39,386 bases of DNA from a virus (IMGVR_UViG_642979322_000008), one strand, 5' to 3'. Shown: positions 10,297-39,386, counted from the first letter of the stretch. A program made the numbers and translations. The notes: generated by a model from the letters alone, not told the origin.

Positions 10297-10797
10297 ATGC
10301 CAAAACTCCCCGCACCACTGCGTAAAAAGCTGATTGCCCTTGTTCTGGCCGGTGCCGGGACGTTCACGATTGCCACGCATTACACCGGTTACTGGGAAGG
10401 GAAAGAAAACTCCACGTATATCGATCCCACCGGTACACCCACCATCTGTTACGGCCATACCGGCCCGGATGTGAAACCGGGTATGACCCTGACAGATGAA
10501 GAATGCCTGGAACTACTGGAAAAGGACATGAAATGGGCCTTTGCGGCCATTGATCGGCGTGTTCAGGTGCCGCTTACCCGTGGTCAGACGGTGGCGCTGG
10601 CTTCGTGGATCTTCTGGGCCGGTGAAACGAACTTTCGCAACTCCACGCTTCTGCGCCTGATCAATGCCGGGCAGATGCCCGCGTCCTGTAAGCAGTATAT
10701 CCGCTGGATTTATTCAAAGGGGGTGAAACTCCCCGGCCTTGAGGCCCGCCGTTCGGCGGATGAATGGTTATGTCGCTACGACTTGCCGAAAGTCTGA
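10297..10797 (+). CDS. lys: SAR endolysin (lysozyme, T4-like glycoside hydrolase fold)
   Basis: N-terminal signal-anchor LIALVLAGAGTFTIATHY followed by E...D...T catalytic spacing (YWEGKENSTYIDPTGTPT). Confidence 0.8.
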   Translation: MPKLPAPLRKKLIALVLAGAGTFTIATHYTGYWEGKENSTYIDPTGTPTICYGHTGPDVKPGMTLTDEECLELLEKDMKWAFAAIDRRVQVPLTRGQTVALASWIFWAGETNFRNSTLLRLINAGQMPASCKQYIRWIYSKGVKLPGLEARRSADEWLCRYDLPKV

Positions 10798-10870
10798 ACC
10801 GCTTCTGGCGACCGCTCATGATAGCGCTGCTGTGTGCGGTACTGCTGTTACGGGGTGTCCTGTGGCTGCG

Positions 10871-11260
10871 GTGAATAATGCCTTACCGGCCCTGATTGCC
10901 GGGGCGTGCATGGCGGCGCTGGGGATTATCGCTGTACTGGTTGCCGCTATATGGGGAATGCACCAGAAGACGCAGCGCCTTGAAGACAATAATCAGGTGC
11001 TTGTGCGTGAGCGGGATGAGGCGCGTCAGGTGCTGGCAAATCAGCAGCACACCCTGCAACTCATTTCACAAATCAGTGAGGCGGCCACGAATGAAAAACA
11101 ACAGAACATTCAGCACAGCGAGGGGCAGCAGAGCGTTGTCCGCCGGTCGCTGGCAGCAGTGCCTGCGGCCTCTGCCCCTGTTCCTGATGATGTGGCTGAT
11201 CGGGTGCGCCGGGCCGTCTGTGAAATACGTGCCTGTGAAGCCGGTGCCGATCCCCGCTGA
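10871..11260 (+). CDS. i-spanin (Rz-like); start uncertain
   Basis: N-terminal TM segment ALIAGACMAALGIIAVLVAAIWG then charged/coiled region; GTG 10871 chosen, other in-frame starts possible. Confidence 0.45.
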   Translation: MNNALPALIAGACMAALGIIAVLVAAIWGMHQKTQRLEDNNQVLVRERDEARQVLANQQHTLQLISQISEAATNEKQQNIQHSEGQQSVVRRSLAAVPAASAPVPDDVADRVRRAVCEIRACEAGADPR

Positions 11261-11462
11261 ATGGCTGGCTGACTGCCTGGTCCCTCCTGCGCCGGAGCCG
11301 TTCACGTTTGGGGCATCGGTCACTTACAACCTGCAACTGCTGGCGGTGATCAAGAACTGCAACGTGGACAAGGCCAGTATTCGTCGTCTGGAGACGCGGC
11401 GACAACATGAATTTACTGATATGGCCGGAACGCCTGCTGTTCCGGCAGGAAAAACGAAGTAA
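11091..11462 (+). CDS. o-spanin (Rz1-like lipoprotein), overlapping i-spanin in another frame
   Basis: Lipobox-like LIGC followed by Pro-rich sequence; start uncertain. Confidence 0.45.
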   Translation: MKNNRTFSTARGSRALSAGRWQQCLRPLPLFLMMWLIGCAGPSVKYVPVKPVPIPAEWLADCLVPPAPEPFTFGASVTYNLQLLAVIKNCNVDKASIRRLETRRQHEFTDMAGTPAVPAGKTK

Positions 11463-11471
11463 GGAAAAGGT

Positions 11472-11699
11472 ATGGATGATTCAGATCGTGCTCAGGCTGT
11501 GATGGAGCGGGGATCAGAACGCGCCCTTTGTAACCGGCTGACACGTAAGCGCCAGGCAGTGGATACGCCGGGCAGACGTGTCTGCGCGGACTGTGGCGGA
11601 GAGATCCCCGCCGCACGTCTTGTTGCTGTGCCGGATGCCATCCGTTGTGTGAACTGCCAGAACATCATGGAGGCCCGTCATGTGGGTCAGCATCGTTAA
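11472..11699 (+). CDS. TraR/DksA-family C4 zinc-finger protein
   Basis: CxxC...CxxC (CADCGG...CVNCQ) in a 75-aa ORF. Confidence 0.6.
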   Translation: MDDSDRAQAVMERGSERALCNRLTRKRQAVDTPGRRVCADCGGEIPAARLVAVPDAIRCVNCQNIMEARHVGQHR

Positions 11700-11988
11700 A
11701 GATTATGTTGTGCCGATCCTTTCGGCGACGGCAACCGCTGGCGGGATATTCATGGCGCTGATGCGCAAAACGTTTGTCCCCCGCGAGGCCTTTGAAAAAC
11801 TCTCCGACCGCGTTGAGAAGGTGGAAACCCGCCTGTCGTCACTGCCGACAGAAGCCGAGGTCAACCGTCTGAATGTGGAAATCGTGACCCTGCGGGGTGA
11901 ACTGAAAACCACGAACGCCACGCTCCGCTCTGTCTCCTATCAGAACGAACTGCTGCTGGAGCAGGCTGTAAGGAAAAAAACGCAATGA
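11680..11988 (+). CDS. hypothetical membrane-anchored protein (Mu gp25-like position)
   Basis: N-terminal hydrophobic segment then coiled-coil-like region. Confidence 0.5.
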   Translation: MWVSIVKDYVVPILSATATAGGIFMALMRKTFVPREAFEKLSDRVEKVETRLSSLPTEAEVNRLNVEIVTLRGELKTTNATLRSVSYQNELLLEQAVRKKTQ

Positions 11989-12275
11989 GTGATTTCATTA
12001 CTGAAGATCAGCGTCTGGTCATTCTGCGGTCGCTGGCAGATTACAACGGTGAACTGGGTGAATCCGTGCTCCAGGACTGTCTGGATGATTACGGCCACCG
12101 CGTGTCCCGCGACACCGTTCACACCCACATTGCCTGGCTTGCCGAGCAGGGACTGGTGCGCAAACGCGTTCTGATTAACGGTTATTTCATCGCGGAACTG
12201 ACCGGTCGTGGGCAGGATGTGGCGGAAGGCCGGGTCTGCGTTCCGGGTGTGAAGAAACCACGCGCAAGGGGGTAA
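11985..12275 (+). CDS. hypothetical protein (Mu gp26-like position)
   Basis: 96-aa ORF overlapping neighbours by 4 nt. Confidence 0.5.
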   Translation: MSDFITEDQRLVILRSLADYNGELGESVLQDCLDDYGHRVSRDTVHTHIAWLAEQGLVRKRVLINGYFIAELTGRGQDVAEGRVCVPGVKKPRARG

Positions 12276-12277
12276 CG

Positions 12278-12859
12278 ATGGACAAGCCGACGCGTGGTCG
12301 TGTACGCAAGGTGGATTTGCTCCCCGACAGCATCCGTAAGCCGCTGCTGGAAATGCTGCGTGAAAAACGTCTGACGCAGGTCCAGATCCGTGAGGAAATC
12401 AACCGTCTGATCCGTGAGGCGGGCCTGCCGGAAGAGCAGCAGCTTTCACCGGCGGCCATCAGCCGGGAAGCCTCCCGTAATGAGCTGATTGCCCGTAACC
12501 TGCGTGATTTACGCGAGCAGACAAAAGCCATGATGGCCGAACTGGGGGACAAGCCGACCGGTGAAACCACAGCGCTGATTCTGGAAATGTCCCGCGCCCT
12601 GATGTACCGCCGCCTGCGTGCCGCGACCGAATCTCTGAACAGCGACAGCGACGTGGATATGCGCCTCATCAAAGACATCCTCCTGTCAGCACAGCGTGCG
12701 GAAAGTGCCGCCGAGCGCAGCATTAAGCGTGAAAAAGAAATCCGGGCCGCATTTGCTGAAGAGATGGCAAACGCGGTCACCGACGAGCTGCGCGGCGTGG
12801 ACGGGATGAGTGAACAGCTTGAGTCCCGTATTAAGGGGATTCTGTTGGGTAAAGCCTGA
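12278..12859 (+). CDS. putative terminase small subunit (Mu gp27-like)
   Basis: 193-aa ORF immediately upstream of, and overlapping, the large terminase gene. Confidence 0.55.
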   Translation: MDKPTRGRVRKVDLLPDSIRKPLLEMLREKRLTQVQIREEINRLIREAGLPEEQQLSPAAISREASRNELIARNLRDLREQTKAMMAELGDKPTGETTALILEMSRALMYRRLRAATESLNSDSDVDMRLIKDILLSAQRAESAAERSIKREKEIRAAFAEEMANAVTDELRGVDGMSEQLESRIKGILLGKA

Positions 12860-31629: not shown

Positions 31630-32540
31630 TGTTCCATGTTGATAATAATTCCGGCGTGGCGAATATGCCTGCGCTGGCACCGGCGCAGAGTAATACCACC
31701 ACCTGGTTTACCGAAGGTGACGGACAAAAAGGTATCAGCTGGATTGGTCAGGACTGGCTGAATATTCTCCAGGCCGAACTGCTGAATATTCTGGCTGAAG
31801 CCAGTATTCAGCCGGATAAGGCGCAGTTAAACCAGCTTACGCTGTCCATTAAAGCCATTATCGCTGCGAATGCCTTTTCCCGGAAAAACAACCTGAAAGA
31901 AATTGCTGATGCCGGTGCGGAAGCCCAGCGTCTTGCCCGTGGTTATCTTGGTCTTGGGGCGCTTGCCACAAAAAACAGTCTTGGTCCCGGTGACGTTAAT
32001 GCTCTGGCGAAGGATCAGAACCTTGCCGACCTGGAGAATGCGGGAACCGCCCGTAATAATCTGGATGTTTACAGCAAAAGCGAAGGTGATAACCGTTACC
32101 TGCGCAGGGAGCAGAACGGCGCAGACATTCCGGATAAAGGCGCTTTTATCGATAACGTTGGTTTACGGGAAACGGTAAATAAGGCTGCTGATGCCCTGCC
32201 ATCGGGTGGAACCGCCGTGGCAGCAAACAGACTCGCCACCCCAAGAAATATTAATGGTGTTCCTTTTGACGGAACGCTGGATATCAACATCACGTCAGGA
32301 ATGACGCAGTCAACCGCAGATGGCCGGTATGTACAGAATGTTCAGCTTGGAGCACAGAGCTATCATTCACCCGGAGGCAATGAAATGTCATGGAATTACA
32401 GCGCACCTTCCGGTTGTATGCTTTCCGGAATTAACGTGCAGGAAACCGGCTCCCGGTCTGCGGACAATATCGGTGGGGTCTATTATCGCCCGGTTCAGAT
32501 TTATATTAATAATGCCTGGAGAACGGTAAGTTCAGTGTAA
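31629..32540 (+). CDS. tail fibre protein; constant N-terminal part plus variable C-terminal part inside the invertible segment
   Basis: ATG 31629 (MFHVDNNSG...); the C-terminal ~125 aa lie downstream of the left crossover site and have a diverged inverted copy on the minus strand. Confidence 0.8.
   Translation: MFHVDNNSGVANMPALAPAQSNTTTWFTEGDGQKGISWIGQDWLNILQAELLNILAEASIQPDKAQLNQLTLSIKAIIAANAFSRKNNLKEIADAGAEAQRLARGYLGLGALATKNSLGPGDVNALAKDQNLADLENAGTARNNLDVYSKSEGDNRYLRREQNGADIPDKGAFIDNVGLRETVNKAADALPSGGTAVAANRLATPRNINGVPFDGTLDINITSGMTQSTADGRYVQNVQLGAQSYHSPGGNEMSWNYSAPSGCMLSGINVQETGSRSADNIGGVYYRPVQIYINNAWRTVSSV
32146..32171. repeat. left invertase crossover site (gix-like)
   Basis: TTATCGATAACGTTGGTTTACGGGAA; inverted partner at 33521-33546; shares GGTTTAC(A/G)GGAA core with Mu gix as recalled. 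Confidence 0.55.
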
Positions 32541-33175: not shown

Positions 33176-33520
33176 TTATGCGCTGGAAGCTGTTTTCCAC
33201 GAACCATCTATCAGAAACTGAACAGGTCGATAATATGCGGTTACCGTTGCATTACCATCACCAGCGACATCAAGCCCTGTAAGTACGCATCCGTCAGGAA
33301 CCTCAAAAATATTATATTGCATTCCAATCGTTGACCTTGAACCTCTTCGAATGCTTTGAACATAACGTGAGTCAGCCACAGACTGCGTCATCCCCGATGT
33401 AATATTTATATCCTGCGTTCCGTCAAATGGGACACCATTAATATTTCTTGGAGTGGCGAGTTTATTCGCTGCAACAGCCGCTCCGTTCGATGGCAGGGCA
33501 TTCGCGGCCCTGTTTACAGT
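33176..33520 (-). CDS. alternative tail-fibre C-terminal cassette (Sv'-like), start-less
   Basis: Minus-strand frame reads GLRDTVNRAANALPSNGAAVAANKLATPRNINGVPFDGTQDINITSGMTQSVADSRYVQ..., a diverged copy of the forward tail-fibre C-terminal region; open up to the right crossover site. Confidence 0.6.
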   Translation of the reverse strand, partial: TVNRAANALPSNGAAVAANKLATPRNINGVPFDGTQDINITSGMTQSVADSRYVQSIRRGSRSTIGMQYNIFEVPDGCVLTGLDVAGDGNATVTAYYRPVQFLIDGSWKTASSA

Positions 33521-33546
33521 ATCCCGTAAACCGAAGGTTTCAGGGA
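33521..33546. repeat. right invertase crossover site (gix-like), inverted relative to 32146-32171
   Basis: ATCCCGTAAACCGAAGGTTTCAGGGA; reverse complement carries CGGTTTACGGGA as at the left site. Confidence 0.55.
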
Positions 33547-33601: not shown

Positions 33602-34162
33602 ATGCTGATTGGCTATATACGCGTATCAACAAATGACCAGAACACAGGTTTACAAAGAAATGCGCTGGAATGTGCAGGATGTGAGCAGATTTTTGAAGAT
33701 AAAATGAGTGGTAAAACGACACAGCGGCCGGGACTGAAGCGGGCACTGAAGAAACTAAAACCCGGTGACACACTGATGGTCTGGAAACTGGACAGGCTGG
33801 GGCGCAGTATGCGCCACCTTGTTGCGCTGACAGATGAATTACAGCAACAGGGGATAAATTTTCGTAGTCTTACTGACAACATTGATACGTCAACCCCCAT
33901 GGGGCGCTTCTTTTTTCACATAATGGGTGCGCTGGCAGAAATGGAGCGTGAATTAATTGTCGAACGGACACGGGCTGGTCTTGCAGCTGCCCGTGAAAGG
34001 GGACGAACCGGCGGCAGACCCCGTCGTCTCACGCAGGAACAATACGAGCAGGTCGGGCGTTTACTGGCCGGGGGTGTCAGTCGAAGACAGGTGGCACTTA
34101 TTTTTGATATCGGCCTTTCAACCCTTTATCGTTATTATCCTGCGAGCGTTTCGGAAAAATAA
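33602..34162 (+). CDS. gin: serine-recombinase DNA invertase (Gin/Pin/Cin/Hin family)
   Basis: 186 aa; MLIGYIRVSTNDQ with catalytic Ser, RSLTDxIDTSxPMGRFFFHxMGALAEMERELIxERT and C-terminal HTH match Mu Gin almost throughout, as recalled. Confidence 0.93.
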   Translation: MLIGYIRVSTNDQNTGLQRNALECAGCEQIFEDKMSGKTTQRPGLKRALKKLKPGDTLMVWKLDRLGRSMRHLVALTDELQQQGINFRSLTDNIDTSTPMGRFFFHIMGALAEMERELIVERTRAGLAAARERGRTGGRPRRLTQEQYEQVGRLLAGGVSRRQVALIFDIGLSTLYRYYPASVSEK

Positions 34163-34261
34163 GACGCTCTCTTTGTTGGGCCTTTACTGAATTAACGCAA
34201 AATGGCGTTTATCGGTCTGTGGATATGATAATTCAGTTTATTCAGGAACAGGCTGATTATT

Positions 34262-36301
34262 ATGACGTCCAAATGGGTTCAACTATCATCAATGCCCGGA
34301 AACTTTACTGTTAAAGTTTCCGGTGGTACAGCGGCATTTCTTGAGGCTCCCTTTCCTCCGGCCGAAACAAAAGGAGGAATGACATTTGCTGACTGTCTCA
34401 TCAGTTTTAATACACGGGATTGCCTGTGGGTAAGGCCAGTATCCGGTGATCCGAGTGTGGAAATTACCGGAGCGGGTATTGGTGCGGTCATTCCGTTAAG
34501 TGCTGATGTTGCCGGTACTGCTGAACCGTCAGACTGGGATAATGCTGAAACACATACCCGTCCGTCAGGAAATGAAACTGCTTCCAGCTCCCCTTCCTGG
34601 TATTACGTGGTGGTTCTTGCTGGTCAGTCAAACGGTATGGCTTACGGTGAAGGTCTGCCACTGCCGGAGACATATGACCGCCCCGAACCGCGTATTATGC
34701 AGTTAGCCCGTCGCAGTACAGTCACGCCGGGAGGTAAAGCCTGTCAGTATAACGACATCATTCTGGCCGACCACTGTCTGCATGATGTGCAGGATATGAG
34801 TGGAAAAAATCACCCGAAAGCGGATGTGGCTAAAGGGCAATATGGCACCGTGGGTCAGGGGCTTCACATTGCCAAAAAACTGCTGCCGTTTATTCCGGCA
34901 GATGCGGGGATTCTGCTGGTTCCCTGCTGCCGTGGTGGTTCTGCATTCACGGCGGGTGCTGACGGCACGTACAGTGACAGCACGGGTGCTTCAGAGGACT
35001 CAGCCCGCTGGGGTGTGGATAAGCCGCTGTATAAGGACTTAATCAGCCGGACAAAAGCGGCACTGGCGAAGAACCCGAAAAACCGCCTGCTTGCTGTGGT
35101 GTGGATGCAGGGCGAGTTTGATATTGATGCGAAGCCGACGGAGCATTCCGCGCTGTTTCTGGCGATGGTGGAAAAATTCCGCGCAGACCTGGCTGAACAG
35201 GCGGAACAGTGTACCGGTGGCAGTGCTGCTGGCGTTCCGTGGATTTGTGGCGATACCACGTATTTCTGGAAACAGAAAAATGAACCGGCATACCAGGCAA
35301 TCTATGGCGGCTACAAAAACAAAACAGATAAAAACATTCATTTCGTTCCATTAATGACAGATGAAAATGACGCGAATGTACCCACCAACAATCCGGCAGA
35401 AGACCCGGATATTGAATCCATTGGTTATTACGGCTCAACGTGGCGTAACAGTGCCGCCACCTGGACATCTGCGGACCGGGCCAGCCATTTCAGTTCATGG
35501 GCACGTCGTGGGATTATTTCCGACCGTCTGGCCACGGCAGTTCTGACTCATGCGGGGCGAACCACAGTAAAAGCCGATGTTCCATCTTCTGAAACTGAAG
35601 CACCAGTGCCGTCACCTTCAGAAACTGAAGCAGTAACCACAACACTGCTGTCTTATCGTGTCAGTGAGTCAGAAGGAAATCTGAAAGCCCAGGGCTGGGA
35701 GCCGGCTGGCGGTAAAGCTGAAATTATCAGTGATGCAGGAGGCACAGGTGGTAAGGCAATGAAACTGACCAAGGAAACAGGTAAATCATCCTGGTATCTG
35801 GATCATGATGCCGGTACTGGTGCTGAACTGCTGAAAAATGGTGGTTTAATCAGTTGTCGTTTTAAAGTACCTGGCGACCTGGTGGCAAACCAGTATGTCA
35901 TGGGGCTTTACTGGCCGGTTTCCTCTCTGCCGCAGGGTGTCACCCTGACAGGGGATGCAGGGAATAATCTGCTGGCATCGTTCTACATCCAGACAGACGC
36001 AAAAGACCTGAATGTGATGTACCACAATGCAAAAGTGGCAACAAATAACCAGAAACTGGGAACCTTTGGTGCATTTGATAATGAATGGCATACGCTGGCC
36101 TTCCGTTTTGCAGGAAATAACAGCCTTCAGGTTATTCCGGTTATTGATGGTCAGGATGGTGCCGCGTTTACCCTGACGCAGTCACCAGTAGGAACTTTCC
36201 CGGTGGACAAACTCCGCGTAACGGATATCACAAAAAATGCAACTTACCCGGTGCTGATTGACAGCATTGTGGTGGAAGTGAAAAAAGCGGTAACAGAATA
36301 A
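34262..36301 (+). CDS. SGNH/SASA-family carbohydrate O-acetylesterase-like protein (prophage NanS-p-like) with additional N- and C-terminal domains
   Basis: 679 aa; GQSN motif (VVVLAGQSNGMAYGEG) typical of sialate O-acetylesterase-type SGNH hydrolases; Ser/Thr/Pro/Glu linker (SETEAPVPSPSETEA) before a C-terminal beta-rich domain. Confidence 0.55.
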   Translation: MTSKWVQLSSMPGNFTVKVSGGTAAFLEAPFPPAETKGGMTFADCLISFNTRDCLWVRPVSGDPSVEITGAGIGAVIPLSADVAGTAEPSDWDNAETHTRPSGNETASSSPSWYYVVVLAGQSNGMAYGEGLPLPETYDRPEPRIMQLARRSTVTPGGKACQYNDIILADHCLHDVQDMSGKNHPKADVAKGQYGTVGQGLHIAKKLLPFIPADAGILLVPCCRGGSAFTAGADGTYSDSTGASEDSARWGVDKPLYKDLISRTKAALAKNPKNRLLAVVWMQGEFDIDAKPTEHSALFLAMVEKFRADLAEQAEQCTGGSAAGVPWICGDTTYFWKQKNEPAYQAIYGGYKNKTDKNIHFVPLMTDENDANVPTNNPAEDPDIESIGYYGSTWRNSAATWTSADRASHFSSWARRGIISDRLATAVLTHAGRTTVKADVPSSETEAPVPSPSETEAVTTTLLSYRVSESEGNLKAQGWEPAGGKAEIISDAGGTGGKAMKLTKETGKSSWYLDHDAGTGAELLKNGGLISCRFKVPGDLVANQYVMGLYWPVSSLPQGVTLTGDAGNNLLASFYIQTDAKDLNVMYHNAKVATNNQKLGTFGAFDNEWHTLAFRFAGNNSLQVIPVIDGQDGAAFTLTQSPVGTFPVDKLRVTDITKNATYPVLIDSIVVEVKKAVTE

Positions 36302-36307
36302 AAAAAT

Positions 36308-36334
36308 CCCGCCGGTCATGATATGGCTGGCGGG
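36308..36334 (-). terminator. GC-rich hairpin after the esterase gene with U-tract on the minus-strand side
   Basis: Stem CCCGCCGG / CTGGCGGG; A7 precedes it on the plus strand, which gives T7 after it on the minus strand. Confidence 0.35.
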
Positions 36335-36447
36335 AGCTACCTAACCCATAAAGGAAAATAAAAATACTCCCGAAGGAGTGGTTATCAGTCGCTTCGATGT
36401 TTTTACCCGATAACGAATTATGTAGTCAATATCAAAGGTAAGGTTAT

Positions 36448-36630
36448 ATGACATTCGTTCATACAATGCTGCTTTATTTCTGCGCTGTGGTCAGTGCGTT
36501 ATATCTGGTGAGCGGTGGTTATAAGGTCATCAGAAATTATATTCGCCGTAAAATTGATGATGCGGCAGCTGAAAAACTCAGTAAAACAGCACAGGCACCG
36601 TCATCCCCAAACGACCCGACCCCGCTCTGA
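36448..36630 (+). CDS. small membrane protein (one TM helix)
   Basis: 60-aa ORF, RBS AAGGTAAGG; hydrophobic N-terminus MLLYFCAVVSALYLVSGG. Confidence 0.4.
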   Translation: MTFVHTMLLYFCAVVSALYLVSGGYKVIRNYIRRKIDDAAAEKLSKTAQAPSSPNDPTPL

Positions 36631-36665
36631 TAACGGGGCAATATACCTGCAAAAGGAGAATATTC

Positions 36666-36911
36666 ATGCCAGAGATTAAAGGCACGGTTACTGAAGAGCT
36701 TGTCAAACAGGCACTTTATTCTGAAGAAGTGAACCGCGTGCTGAAGGCGCAGGTTCGCAAGGATTTTGAGGCACAAATCGACGCATATGTTGATGAAGTG
36801 CTGGCCCGAATGGTTGGCCGTTCTCCGGCTGAAAACAGCACGGAAAATGATCCTCAACCCGTAGAGCAACCAGAGCCGGTTCAGCCCGGAACTGACGGTA
36901 CTATGATGTAA
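36666..36911 (+). CDS. hypothetical acidic small protein
   Basis: 81-aa ORF, RBS AAAGGAG 7 nt upstream of ATG. Confidence 0.45.
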   Translation: MPEIKGTVTEELVKQALYSEEVNRVLKAQVRKDFEAQIDAYVDEVLARMVGRSPAENSTENDPQPVEQPEPVQPGTDGTMM

Positions 36912-36920
36912 CAATACCGA

Positions 36921-36940
36921 CCGGCAGGTTTCCCTGCCGG
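36921..36940 (+). terminator. hairpin terminator candidate after small gene
   Basis: Stem CCGGCAGG / CCTGCCGG, loop TTTC, followed by GTGAGTTTGTT. Confidence 0.45.
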
Positions 36941-37229
36941 GTGAGTTTGTTAATGCACGTTTTGTGTATTTTCCCTCCTGGGAGAACAGGCAGGACATAT
37001 CAGCATCCTGAAACAGGAAGCATTTTTGGGTTTGTATGTCTTGCCATTTTGAGATCGAGAACGGCGATAGATGAGCTGTAAGGGAGTCTTACAGGCAGGG
37101 CAAACAGGCTCTTTCATCCATGATAAAGATCTCCTTTTTATGCATCTCTGCTTTACAGGAGACCGGGGAATATCATAGGATACGCCACGAGCTCGAAGTA
37201 AAGCATTGATGCAAGTTTTTACAGATTGA

Positions 37230-37262
37230 CCCAGCATAGTTCCAGCTATGCTGGGTTTCACT
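37230..37262 (+). terminator. rho-independent terminator
   Basis: Perfect 10-bp stem CCCAGCATAG / CTATGCTGGG with loop TTCCAG followed by TTTCACTTTT. Confidence 0.6.
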
Positions 37263-37299
37263 TTTATGTAGTATCCTGTTGATTTGAAACATACTACAT

Positions 37300-37528
37300 A
37301 TACGCGTGATCCTACCTTCACTGTATAAAAAGTCAATAAAATGATCATTTTATGATCGTTTTCACCACCTAACTCTTCGTTTTCTTTAAGTAAATAATCA
37401 CCTCCCTGAATCATTGTTGATGACTTTTCAATCTATTTGTTGTATCAATTAAACAAATCGAATCGATCGTTTTTGTCGATCGATTGCATGAGAAAGGCAT
37501 CAACAACAAAGCAGGAGGTTATGCGGTC
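37300..37528. promoter_or_regulatory. com-mom upstream control region with GATC cluster
   Basis: GATC at about 37309, 37343, 37354, 37459 and 37473; palindrome CGATCG-N-CGATCG; RBS AGGAGG before com ATG. Confidence 0.5.
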
Positions 37529-37729
37529 ATGTATCGAAACATACGGTGCCGACACTGCAATAAGCTACTGGCACGGGCCAGTTTCAGTTATCTGGAAGTA
37601 AAATGTCCGCGCTGTAAAACCCTCAATCAAATCACATCTCCGAGCGCCACAGAGCACCCCACATACACAAGGAAATCCTGTCGTGGGGAACAGAAAGCAA
37701 GTCACATCCCGAATCATCAGCACGCCTGA
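37529..37729 (+). CDS. com: Com zinc-finger translational activator of mom
   Basis: [17 protein letters not shown]...EVKCPRCK matches Mu Com Cys4 pattern (IRCKNCNKLL...EIRCPRCK) as recalled; overlaps the mom start. Confidence 0.8.
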
Positions 37730-38420
37730 ACTTATTCGCTATAACGACAATATCGTTGGTTATGGCTCCCGTGAGTTGCGGGTTGAGACAATAAGTTGCT
37801 GGCTGGCCAGACTGGTCATCGTCAATAAACATTACAGCCACCGTTTCGTAAATAACTCCTACCTTCATCTGGGCATATTTTCAGAACGGGAACTTGTTGG
37901 CGTAATGCAATGGGGTTACGCCCTTAACCCAAACAGTGGTGCACGCGTCGTAACGGGTACGCAGAACCGAGAATATATGGAGCTTAACCGGCTATGGCTG
38001 CATGACTGTATGCCGAGAAACTCCGAATCAAGGGCAATCAGTTACGCGCTCAAGCTAATCAGGCAGCTTTATCCGCAGGTACAGTGGGTTCAGTCGTTTG
38101 CAGATGAGCGTTGTGGCTGTCTTGGTGTCGTGTATCAGGCAAGCAATTTTGATTATGTAGGCAGCCATGAATCAATATTCTATGAACTTGATGGCGAGTG
38201 GTATCACGAGATTTGCAGGAATGCCATTAAACGAGGCGGACAACGAGGTGAACATCTGAGGGCTAATATTGACAGAGCCAGTGTTCATAAGTTCCGACAG
38301 TTTCGTTACATCCGGTTTCTGAACAAGAGGGCCAGAAAACGCCTCAACACAAAGCTATTCAAAGTCCAGCCTTACCCAAAACCACAAACAGTTAAAACTG
38401 GTTTGAAAGAGAGTGAATGA
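37683..38420 (+). CDS. mom: Mom DNA-modification enzyme (adenine N6-carbamoylmethylation)
   Basis: 245-aa ORF directly after and overlapping com, last gene before the prophage right end; start codon uncertain. Confidence 0.8.
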
Positions 38421-38439: not shown

Positions 38440-38550
38440 AAAACTCAAAAGAAAAGCGCCGATTTAGTATCAAATAAGTTGCGTATCGGCGTTTTTCAGC
38501 GGTATCAAATGAAATGCAAATCGGTATCAAAAAAATCGCCGCGCTATACA
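38440..38550. repeat. prophage right end (attR) with candidate transposase-binding repeats
   Basis: Three GTATCAAA-type repeats (about 38467, 38502, 38524); element ends ...CTATACA, whose complement reads 5'-TGTAT like the Mu left-end start. Confidence 0.55.
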
Positions 38551-39386
38551 CGCATCGTTCCATTCAGCAGCGCGATATCTGCATGGTGTTTCAGTCATAC
38601 GCTCTGTTCCCGCATATGTCGCTGGGCGAAAACGTCGGCTACGGGTTAAAGATGCTCGGCGTGTCGCGTAGCGAAGTAAAGCAGCGGGTGAAAGAGGCGC
38701 TGGCAATGGTGGATCTGGAAGGGTTCGAGGACCGCTATGTCGACCAGATTTCCGGTGGTCAGCAACAGCGCGTGGCGCTGGCCCGCGCGTTGATCCTCAA
38801 ACCAAAGGTGCTGCTGTTTGATGAGCCGTTAAGTAACCTCGATGCCAACCTGCGCCGCAGCATGCGCGATAAGATCCGCGAGCTGCAAAAGCAGTTTAAT
38901 ATCACGTCGCTCTACGTGACTCACGATCAAAGTGAGGCCTTCGCGGTTTCCGACACTGTGCTGGTGATGAATAAAGGTCACATCATGCAGATTGGCTCAC
39001 CGCAGGATCTCTATCGTCAGCCAGCCTCCCGCTTTATGGCAAGTTTTATGGGCGACGCCAACCTGTTCCCGGCGAACTTTAGCGAAGAGTATGTCGATAT
39101 CTACGGTTATCGCCTGCCGCGCGCGGCGCATTTCCCGGTGCAAGGTAGCGGCACCGTCGGCATTCGCCCGGAAGCCATCACCTTAAGCAATCACGGCGAA
39201 GAGAGTCAGCGTTGTGTTATTCGCCATGTCGCCTACATGGGGCCGCAGTACGAAGTGACCGTAGAGTGGCATGGACAGGAGATTTTATTACAAGTAAACG
39301 CCACCCGTTTACAGCCCGATATTGGTGAGCACTATTACCTCGAAATCCATCCTTACGGGATGTTTGTTTTAGCGGATGCGGCATAA
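38551..39386 (+). pseudogene. fbpC: host ABC-transporter ATP-binding protein gene (ferric-uptake FbpC/AfuC-like), 5' part missing due to prophage insertion
   Basis: Frame reads ...[23 protein letters not shown] (Q-loop), LSGGQQQRV signature, Walker B LLFDEP, H-loop VTHDQ and C-terminal regulatory domain; Walker A absent, so the N-terminal ~60 codons lie elsewhere. Gene name from recalled similarity only. Confidence 0.6.

Follow-up and report, generated by a model that had tools for sequence, protein, structure and literature searches.

A NanS-p-type esterase module between gin and com-mom in a Mu-like prophage of Escherichia coli

Genes between gin and com

The viral sequence IMGVR_UViG_642979322_000008, a single stretch of 39,386 nucleotides (nt) which is called the window in the following, carries a Mu-like prophage with a block of additional genes between the DNA invertase gene gin and the genes com and mom. 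The first of these genes encodes a sialate O-acetylesterase of the NanS-p type. The gap between gin and com has a length of 3366 bp and contains four open reading frames (ORFs), compared to 94 bp in Mu (gin end 35673, com start 35768). Positions 34163-37480 are 100% identical to Sp18 of E. coli O157:H7 Sakai and to many other genomes of E. coli strains that produce Shiga toxin (STEC). In the Sakai annotation the four ORFs are hypothetical proteins, ECs_4993 to ECs_4996, and Sp18 is named 'prophage Sp18, Mu-like phage'. The following genes were identified, with product lengths in amino acids (aa):

33602-34162, plus strand: gin-type DNA invertase, left border (ECs_4992 in Sakai; Pfam Resolvase, 1.4e-51, and HTH_7)
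34262-36301, plus strand: 679-aa NanS-p-type sialate O-acetylesterase (ECs_4993), stop codon included (ORF, Pfam, PHROG and PDB matches)
36448-36630, plus strand: 60-aa DUF1378 small membrane protein (ECs_4994; PF07125, E 1.2e-38; phrog_494)
36666-36911, plus strand: 81-aa acidic DUF826 protein (ECs_4995; PF05696, E 2.8e-15; phrog_311)
36950-37414, minus strand: 154-aa ORF (ECs_4996) with a C-terminal CPAC...CPAC zinc-ribbon-like motif (phrog_26524, unknown function)
37529-37729, plus strand: com, right border (ECs_4997; Pfam Zn_ribbon_Com)
37683-38420, plus strand: mom, right border (ECs_4998; Pfam Mom)

The original prediction, which was made from the sequence alone, had described an insert relative to Mu with three plus-strand ORFs for proteins of 679, 60, and 81 aa. 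The extra DNA is real and the three ORFs lie where they had been placed, but the size of about 2.7 kb was an underestimate. The cargo comprises about 3.3 kb, because the minus-strand fourth ORF, which had been overlooked, is also located in the gap.

The assignment of the prophage to the Mu-like phages is based on the presence of Phage_Mu_Gp48, Resolvase, Com, and Mom and on an insertion site that varies between genomes. The gin gene shows 76% nt identity to gin of Mu, and Mom is 79.5% identical to Mu Mom on the protein level (73% for the mom DNA). At the right end of Mu, D108, and SfMu the genes gin, com, and mom have the same order and orientation and, as in the window, an invertible fibre segment lies upstream. 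The Sp18-type prophage differs from Mu by the four extra ORFs and in the sequence of gin and mom, where the nt identity is only 73-76%. Since similarity is confined to gin and mom and the intergenic DNA is unalignable, the points of insertion cannot be placed exactly in a comparison with Mu. Flanking direct repeats around the cargo were not found in a repeat search. Mu, D108, and SfMu lack the block, so that it is not a known element with an unrelated function in these well-studied phages. Among 50,697 phage records it was found in a Mu-like context in only two Mu-like inserts.

Domain architecture, relatives and module exchange

By its catalytic and its lectin domain, as judged from sequence comparison, ECs_4993 is a member of the NanS-p family. 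The gene can be divided into five parts, all on the plus strand:

34262-34516, plus strand: N-terminal domain, termed Nnew, aa 1-85, in place of DUF1737
34517-34600, plus strand: linker 1, aa 86-113, 28 residues of low complexity; recombination boundary between N-domain and esterase core
34601-35566, plus strand: SGNH/SASA catalytic domain, aa 114-435, with Ser123 in the GQSN block and His409 in the RASH block
35567-35641, plus strand: linker 2, aa 436-460, Ser/Thr/Pro/Glu-rich, sequence PSSETEAPVPSPSETEA, with an internal 20-nt duplication
35642-36298, plus strand: C-terminal lectin-like jelly-roll domain, aa 461-679, DUF6645 (PF20350, E 2.4e-69, residues 524-642)

The SASA model (PF03629) matches residues 116-312 of ECs_4993 with an E-value of 6.5e-12, and phrog_143 covers residues 62-677. 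Residues 104-428 match the structure 3PT5 of NanS/YjhS (E 2e-118). In this alignment Ser123 (GQSN) and His409 (RASHFS), both of which were checked in the translation, fall onto residues 30 and 312 of the 3PT5 chain. After subtraction of an 11-residue tag, these positions would correspond to Ser19 and His301, the catalytic dyad in native NanS. The chromosomal NanS has the catalytic fold and residues in common with ECs_4993, but it consists of a single domain (about 326 aa), belongs to the nan regulon, and lacks an N-terminal or lectin-like domain (stand-alone forms in loci L018-L020). ECs_4993 has the RASH form of the His-containing block, for which two variants are described in NanS-p (PMC10462455).

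For residues 459-674 the match is the C-terminal domain of NanS-p, crystallised as 6YP6 (E 1e-111). The proposed sugar site comprises four aromatic residues (positions from PMC10462455), which are kept as Y545, Y550, Y575, and F646 in the alignment with the protein of phage 1717. Over residues 102-673 the protein is identical to the esterase gp44 of this Shiga toxin 2 (Stx2) phage at 449 of 579 positions (78%). In RefSeq, ECs_4993 is named either a DUF6645 protein or a sialate O-acetylesterase. The duplication in linker 2 is a direct repeat of 20 nt with 90% identity (35583-35602 and 35613-35632), encoding PSSETEA and PSPSETEA. An N-terminal hydrophobic stretch, as expected for a signal sequence, is missing in ECs_4993.

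The esterase core with its GQSN motif, the Ser/Thr/Pro/Glu linker, the beta-rich C-terminal domain and the similarity to NanS-p esterases had all been read from the sequence before, and they are borne out by these matches. A loss of the catalytic residues, which would have spoken against this reading, was not found, as serine and histidine both align with those of NanS.

The NanS-p proteins of lambdoid phages, e.g., L0105/z1466 of 933W and vb_24B_21/gp84 of phi24B, likewise combine a GQSN/RASH SASA domain with a Ser/Thr/Pro-rich linker and DUF6645. They differ at the N-terminus, where they contain DUF1737, whereas ECs_4993 has an unrelated all-beta region of about 85 aa followed by a longer linker. 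DUF1737 (PF08410), which had been proposed as a domain to look for, gave no match in ECs_4993 at E <= 0.1, and a different domain occupies its place. Residues 1-101 could not be aligned to the N-terminus of the phage 1717 protein, and similarity to lambdoid nanS-p on the DNA level starts only at about 34607 (residue 115). On the evidence of these alignments, the exchange of the lambdoid DUF1737 for the unrelated, predicted all-beta domain in a Mu-like prophage is a new element.

Nnew has no match to the models of Pfam, NCBIfam, or PADLOC. Its predicted structure is an all-beta, six-stranded barrel, for which a fold search returned generic cupin-like matches only. The ratio of nonsynonymous to synonymous substitution rates (dN/dS) is well below 1, as expected when purifying selection acts on the domain. 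When 1.84 billion representative proteins were searched exhaustively with HMMER, five matches were obtained, and in the phage records Nnew occurs solely in two Stx-phage records which carry an inserted Mu-like phage. Among the loci found in E. coli (about 30), Nnew is restricted to Mu-like prophages; DUF1737 is present in all lambdoid loci examined. A second copy of Nnew or a partner elsewhere in the window was not found.

A related system is gp84 of phi24B, a NanS-p homologue. Its DUF1737 was described by cryo-electron microscopy and proteomics as a hexameric capsid decoration on the T=9 hexons, from which the enzyme is cleaved off later, and autoprocessing was proposed at SSP-containing linker motifs (bioRxiv 10.64898/2026.04.10.717836). 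In gp84, as in ECs_4993, an esterase-lectin cassette lies behind a small N-domain and a flexible linker. However, the phi24B anchor consists of one helix and three strands and has no detectable relation to the six-stranded barrel predicted for Nnew. The sequence SSSP is contained in linker 1 of ECs_4993.

The two small proteins encoded behind the esterase gene have the properties described before, i.e., the 60-aa protein contains a single N-terminal hydrophobic helix and has an isoelectric point (pI) of 9.3, and the protein of 81 aa has an acidic pI of 4.3. Their membership in the same conserved lambdoid module as the esterase had been overlooked. DUF1378 homologues with about 53% identity are located about 150 bp 3′ of nanS-p in 309 records of lambdoid/Stx phages, and nanS-p itself was matched in 301 records. 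In lambdoid phages of the PhiR12 type the gene order is Q, nanS-p homologue, DUF1378, DUF826, and holin S; the location of both DUF genes between nanS-p and S is also mentioned in the literature (PMC10462455). Esterase, DUF1378, and DUF826 have the same order on one strand in the window and in PhiR12. Since this order is conserved in lambdoid phages, the trio represents a conserved module of the lambdoid late region.

The surroundings of the trio differ. Lambdoid nanS-p genes typically lie between Q or stx and the lysis genes, upstream of holin S, whereas the Sp18-type module lies between gin and com-mom and is not followed by a lysis cassette. In the Mu-like genome the small genes therefore accompany the esterase and not the lysis cassette, which suggests that DUF1378 and DUF826 may work together with the esterase. 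For a role of the four gap proteins in defence no match was found in PADLOC, nor in NCBIfam.

DNA of the Sp18-type com-mom region is present in 233 of 5426 complete E. coli genomes, and 205 of the 233 also contain the N-domain DNA (at least 90% identity). The esterase module is a fixed feature, i.e., a near-constant part, of the Sp18-type lineage, which occurs in about 4% of the complete E. coli genomes, mostly STEC. In diverged Mu-like prophages of the non-STEC strains M1 and JKHS016 the trio is present as well, with a second type of N-domain that is 59-60% identical. All 22 loci with the M1-type N-domain in IMG/VR adjoin Mu Gp47, Gp48, or gin, or precede com-mom. The number of places matching the cargo block per STEC genome has a median of 3 and reaches 12, mostly owing to other nanS-p copies.

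A comparison of ECs_4993 with three esterases, part by part, gave the following identities:

FORC_028 (Mu-like): N-domain 98%, SASA 67%, C-domain 41%
M1 type (Mu-like): N-domain 60%, SASA 71%, C-domain 73%
Phage 1717 (lambdoid): N-domain unrelated, SASA 82%, C-domain 79%

The allele of FORC_028 is 96-98% identical up to linker 1 and 67% identical beyond it. A similar pattern is seen between the lambdoid phages PhiR12 and 1717, in which DUF1737 is almost identical and the whole proteins are only 60% identical. The boundary of the module is the linker directly before the motif YY[VF]V..AGQSN. As far as can be judged from these identities, the esterase and lectin parts are shuffled between Mu-like and lambdoid backbones, whereas the N-domain stays with the local phage context. 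The FORC_028 gene (L005:6100-8148) is a second esterase allele in a near-identical Mu-like prophage and has intact GQSN and RATH blocks; from its sequence, it may have another glycan specificity.

In two IMG/VR sequences, a switch from Mu-like to lambdoid DNA is located within the DUF1378 gene (L026:2957-3015 and L031:5768-5801). Upstream of the switch, gin or Gp47/48 and the esterase gene are found, and downstream of it DUF1378, DUF826, holin S, and lysozyme follow. In L031 the Mu right end appears in inverted orientation about 5 kb further on (10700-12742). These crossovers reflect either prophage recombination or inversion through the shared module or an assembly chimera.

Relatives of the N-domain were also identified in Salmonella. 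The protein P0008, one of the five HMMER matches, has an N-domain with 29% identity to Nnew and is likewise composed of this domain, a Pro/Thr linker, and a GQSN esterase. It is encoded in a Salmonella Mu-like prophage behind Gp45-48, an invertible fibre segment and an invertase; a search of IMG/VR with its N-domain gave no match. In Salmonella enterica (L009:8001-9274, also L010-L012) the N-domain occurs as a free protein of 81 aa, whose stop codon overlaps the start of a gene for a 343-aa DUF6645 protein. The 81-aa protein belongs to the same family as Nnew (profile E 5e-12 to 6e-17), and the DUF6645 domain of the 343-aa protein is 30% identical to residues 461-664 of ECs_4993. Thus, two overlapping ORFs without an esterase domain are found here, in contrast to the single fused protein ECs_4993. 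The pair follows directly on lambda-type tail-fibre and DUF4376 genes in lambdoid prophages, with a Pertussis_S1 (ArtA-like) toxin gene nearby.

Two further loci extend this range. In L045 (10001-10323) the N-domain is fused to an esterase and lies behind lambda-type tail genes, and in L047 (8001-8246) the free form comes after a protein with more than 3000 aa that resembles gp47 of phi24B. The only constant across all N-domain loci is that the gene is located directly 3′ of the last tail or host-range gene, whereas DUF1737-type esterases are located in the Q-(stx)-holin region instead. This position fits a tail-fibre-linked accessory protein, and it fits equally well the usual slot of a moron gene which ends a late operon.

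Function and release of the esterase

NanS-p esterases are thought to let STEC feed on O-acetylated sialic acids of the gut mucus. Lambdoid alleles from EDL933 and O104:H4 were described as active towards Neu5,9Ac2 and towards mucin glycans with O-acetyl groups, and a growth benefit was reported as well (PMC8065619). The gene block between gin and com is probably a NanS-p accessory module in a Mu-like backbone, whose product is a sialate O-acetylesterase acting like other NanS-p proteins and in which the N-domain was exchanged. Ser123 would serve as the nucleophile and His409 as the base in the removal of O-acetyl groups from Neu5,9Ac2 and O-acetylated mucin sialoglycans, while the lectin-like domain would keep the enzyme on its glycans. 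As a signal peptide is missing, the mucus would be reachable only via lytic growth of the prophage, at which the enzyme would be released either as a free protein in the lysate or carried by the particle. The benefit would be that surviving lysogens can use O-acetylated sialic acid as a source of carbon, that the phage is retained in mucus, or both.

Strong hairpins are present at two positions of the cargo:

36307-36335: 13-bp GC-rich hairpin just after the esterase stop (-23.2 kcal/mol, z -5.6)
36921-36940: hairpin between the convergent DUF826 gene and 154-aa ORF (-22.1 kcal/mol, z -4.95)

The genes had been described as bracketed by hairpins, each with a good ribosome binding site (RBS). 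This is correct for the hairpins after the esterase and the 81-aa genes, whereas the one upstream of the block is not significant (z -1.75). A strong Shine-Dalgarno sequence (AAGGAG) is found only for the 81-aa gene, and that of the esterase gene is weak. The hairpin behind the esterase gene has a run of seven A on its 5′ side and no U-run after it (36299-36345), placing the U-tract on the minus strand. It thus has the form of a minus-strand intrinsic terminator; the nearest end of a minus-strand gene is 600 bp away, at 36950. Rfam RNA elements were not detected in the region at E <= 0.1.

Several observations weigh against the accessory module reading. The U-run is on the wrong strand for a plus-strand terminator. 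No promoter stands out, as a sigma-70 scan gave no more sites than in shuffled sequence. The C-box pattern of Mu (TTAT-N6-ATAA), which is present at Mu Pmom, has no match in the whole window, a result that is uninformative in itself. Read-through from gin would express, already in lysogens, a protein that stays in the cytoplasm. An identity of 78% to the phage 1717 esterase is no proof of an equal substrate range, DUF1378 and DUF826 have no known role in any phage, and in the searchable literature no experiment on the ECs_4993 allele was found.

The question where the protein would act is related to the phi24B result. A virion-displayed enzyme, in which Nnew docks the esterase-lectin cassette on the Mu-like particle and the function is mucus adherence or glycan processing by the particle, overlaps with the accessory module reading and differs from it only in the site of action. 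This appears possible but is doubtful. The domain reported as a capsid decoration in phi24B is exactly the one that is replaced in the Sp18-type prophage, the N-domain type tracks the phage backbone in E. coli, and Sp18 makes particles. Furthermore, a constant N-terminus combined with swapped enzyme and lectin parts resembles the modularity of tailspikes, the purifying selection on Nnew as a folded unit is in line with a docking role, and the esterase gene always lies directly after the tail-fibre module. However, the backbone correlation is also predicted by plain linkage, since a recombination event within the homologous esterase core does not separate the non-homologous 5′ part from the adjacent gin, with which the N-domain co-varies. 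In contrast, it does not co-vary with the tail fibre, as L003 has an unrelated fibre and a 98% identical N-domain. Across the Mu-like sublineages of E. coli the N-domain is only 55-60% conserved, whereas their baseplate proteins show 93-95% identity. Members of the domain family in Salmonella are found with lambda-type tails and beside a phi24B gp47-like gene, so that the family is not tied to one virion architecture. The generic cupin-like fold matches and the lack of an evident partner or second copy in the window also speak against docking. When co-variation of the N-domain with a virion protein was examined, only gin co-varied; fibre type and baseplate proteins did not.

A broader version of virion display, held with somewhat less confidence still, would regard NanS-p cassettes as plug-in enzymes displayed on particles with an exchangeable N-domain as the docking adaptor. 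DUF1737 would then serve phi24B-type capsids, and Nnew, in prophages of the Mu-like, lambda-like, and phi24B-like kinds, a site connected with that end of the structural module at which the tail-fibre genes lie, with DUF1378 and DUF826 as assembly or release helpers. If this is true, binding of particles to mucus and its de-O-acetylation were acquired independently by unrelated temperate phages of gut Enterobacteriaceae.

Two other readings are less probable than display on the virion. The tailspike gp63.1 of phage G7C is an SGNH esterase which acts on surface polysaccharide. An enzyme of this kind would de-O-acetylate O-antigen, capsule, or polysialic acid for adsorption or against superinfection, and in all loci examined, Mu-like ones as well as those of Salmonella, the gene adjoins the tail-fibre/invertase host-range module. 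Directly behind tail-fibre genes of Salmonella, the N-domain is found together with a lectin-like domain and without an esterase, and a receptor-modifying function of NanS-p was raised in a review (PMC8065619). Yet the catalytic domain can be aligned in full to NanS, which is specific for sialate, and shares 82% identity with lambdoid NanS-p. Moreover, the trimeric beta-helix or fibre architecture of tailspikes is absent, the domains being NanS-like, lectin-like, and a small barrel. The STEC hosts of types O157, O26, O103, and O111 are not known to display sialic acid, which likewise counts against a receptor-modifying enzyme. Such a function is therefore considered improbable.

Very improbable, and already disfavoured, is a passive hitchhiker or decaying remnant which was brought in when a co-resident lambdoid prophage recombined with the Mu-like one and which is now functionless. 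The module is a recombination substrate shared between prophages, as seen in the crossovers inside DUF1378, several genomes have a frameshift in the adjacent ORF of 154 aa, and the redundancy of nanS-p in STEC genomes is high. Against this, the large majority of the more than 200 genomes, and likewise diverged sublineages, carry an intact esterase ORF with its catalytic residues, and the low dN/dS of the N-domain is not that of a remnant. The P0008 homologue has a distant N-domain and occupies the corresponding position in a Mu-like prophage of Salmonella, which points to an old arrangement.

The esterase module itself is already known from Shiga-toxin phages, the gene ECs_4993 has long been part of the Sakai genome, and the literature acknowledges that 'non-Stx prophages' also encode NanS-p. 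Its presence in another prophage of the same host is therefore not surprising. In the searchable literature, which did not include the main NanS-p papers (Saile 2016, Rangel 2016, Feuerbaum 2018), no text links 'nanS-p' with 'Mu-like', mentions ECs4993, or notes the N-terminal swap. Within this scope, the earlier view that the pairing of NanS-p with a Mu-like backbone is uncharacterised agrees with what was found.

The exchanged N-domain, the separate N-domain and DUF6645 genes of Salmonella, and the shuffling across backbones turn the phi24B result into a testable question, for which the swapped N-domain provides a clean natural experiment. If docking on particles proves true, mucus targeting is a general phage trait; if Nnew is no particle dock, the enzyme is a plain fitness factor of the lysogen. 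Counts of nanS-p copies that are restricted to lambdoid prophages or to DUF1737 miss one allele. In addition, the shared module is a recombination site between unrelated prophages, which is relevant to the rearrangement of STEC genomes.

The fourth ORF and the prophage ends

The 154-aa protein ECs_4996 is basic (pI 9.9) and is encoded in AT-rich DNA with a GC content of about 0.375-0.40. It was found only in Sp18-type Mu-like prophages or inserts. Its gene is frameshifted in L003, L004, and L005, and in M1 and JKHS016 it is replaced by an unrelated ORF of 86 aa. This position beside Pmom has the appearance of a variable slot of its own, outside of the lambdoid module. A promoter-like site for ECs_4996 is located at 37336-37309.

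The invertible host-range segment upstream of gin is bounded by inverted repeats of 185 nt (32151-32335 and 33357-33541) with 77% complementarity. One strand of the segment encodes a fibre C-terminus and an assembly gene, and the other strand a 71-aa fibre fragment and a Caudo_TAP assembly gene. The fibre and assembly genes are unlike those of Mu and highly variable among otherwise similar prophages.

The left end of the window already lies inside the prophage (minus-strand ORF 1-606). The right end of the prophage is apparently at about 38507 (within 38500-38520; ...CGGTATCA), where it interrupts a host gene for an ABC-transporter ATPase, of which a truncated ORF remains from 38514 on (38514-39386). 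This right host flank differs from that of Sp18 in Sakai, which is sorM, and from those of the other genomes examined. The window therefore stems from a strain other than Sakai, and a differing insertion site is expected of a phage that transposes. Sp18 itself was described as intact, spontaneously induced, not inducible by mitomycin, and efficiently packaged (PMC2669165).

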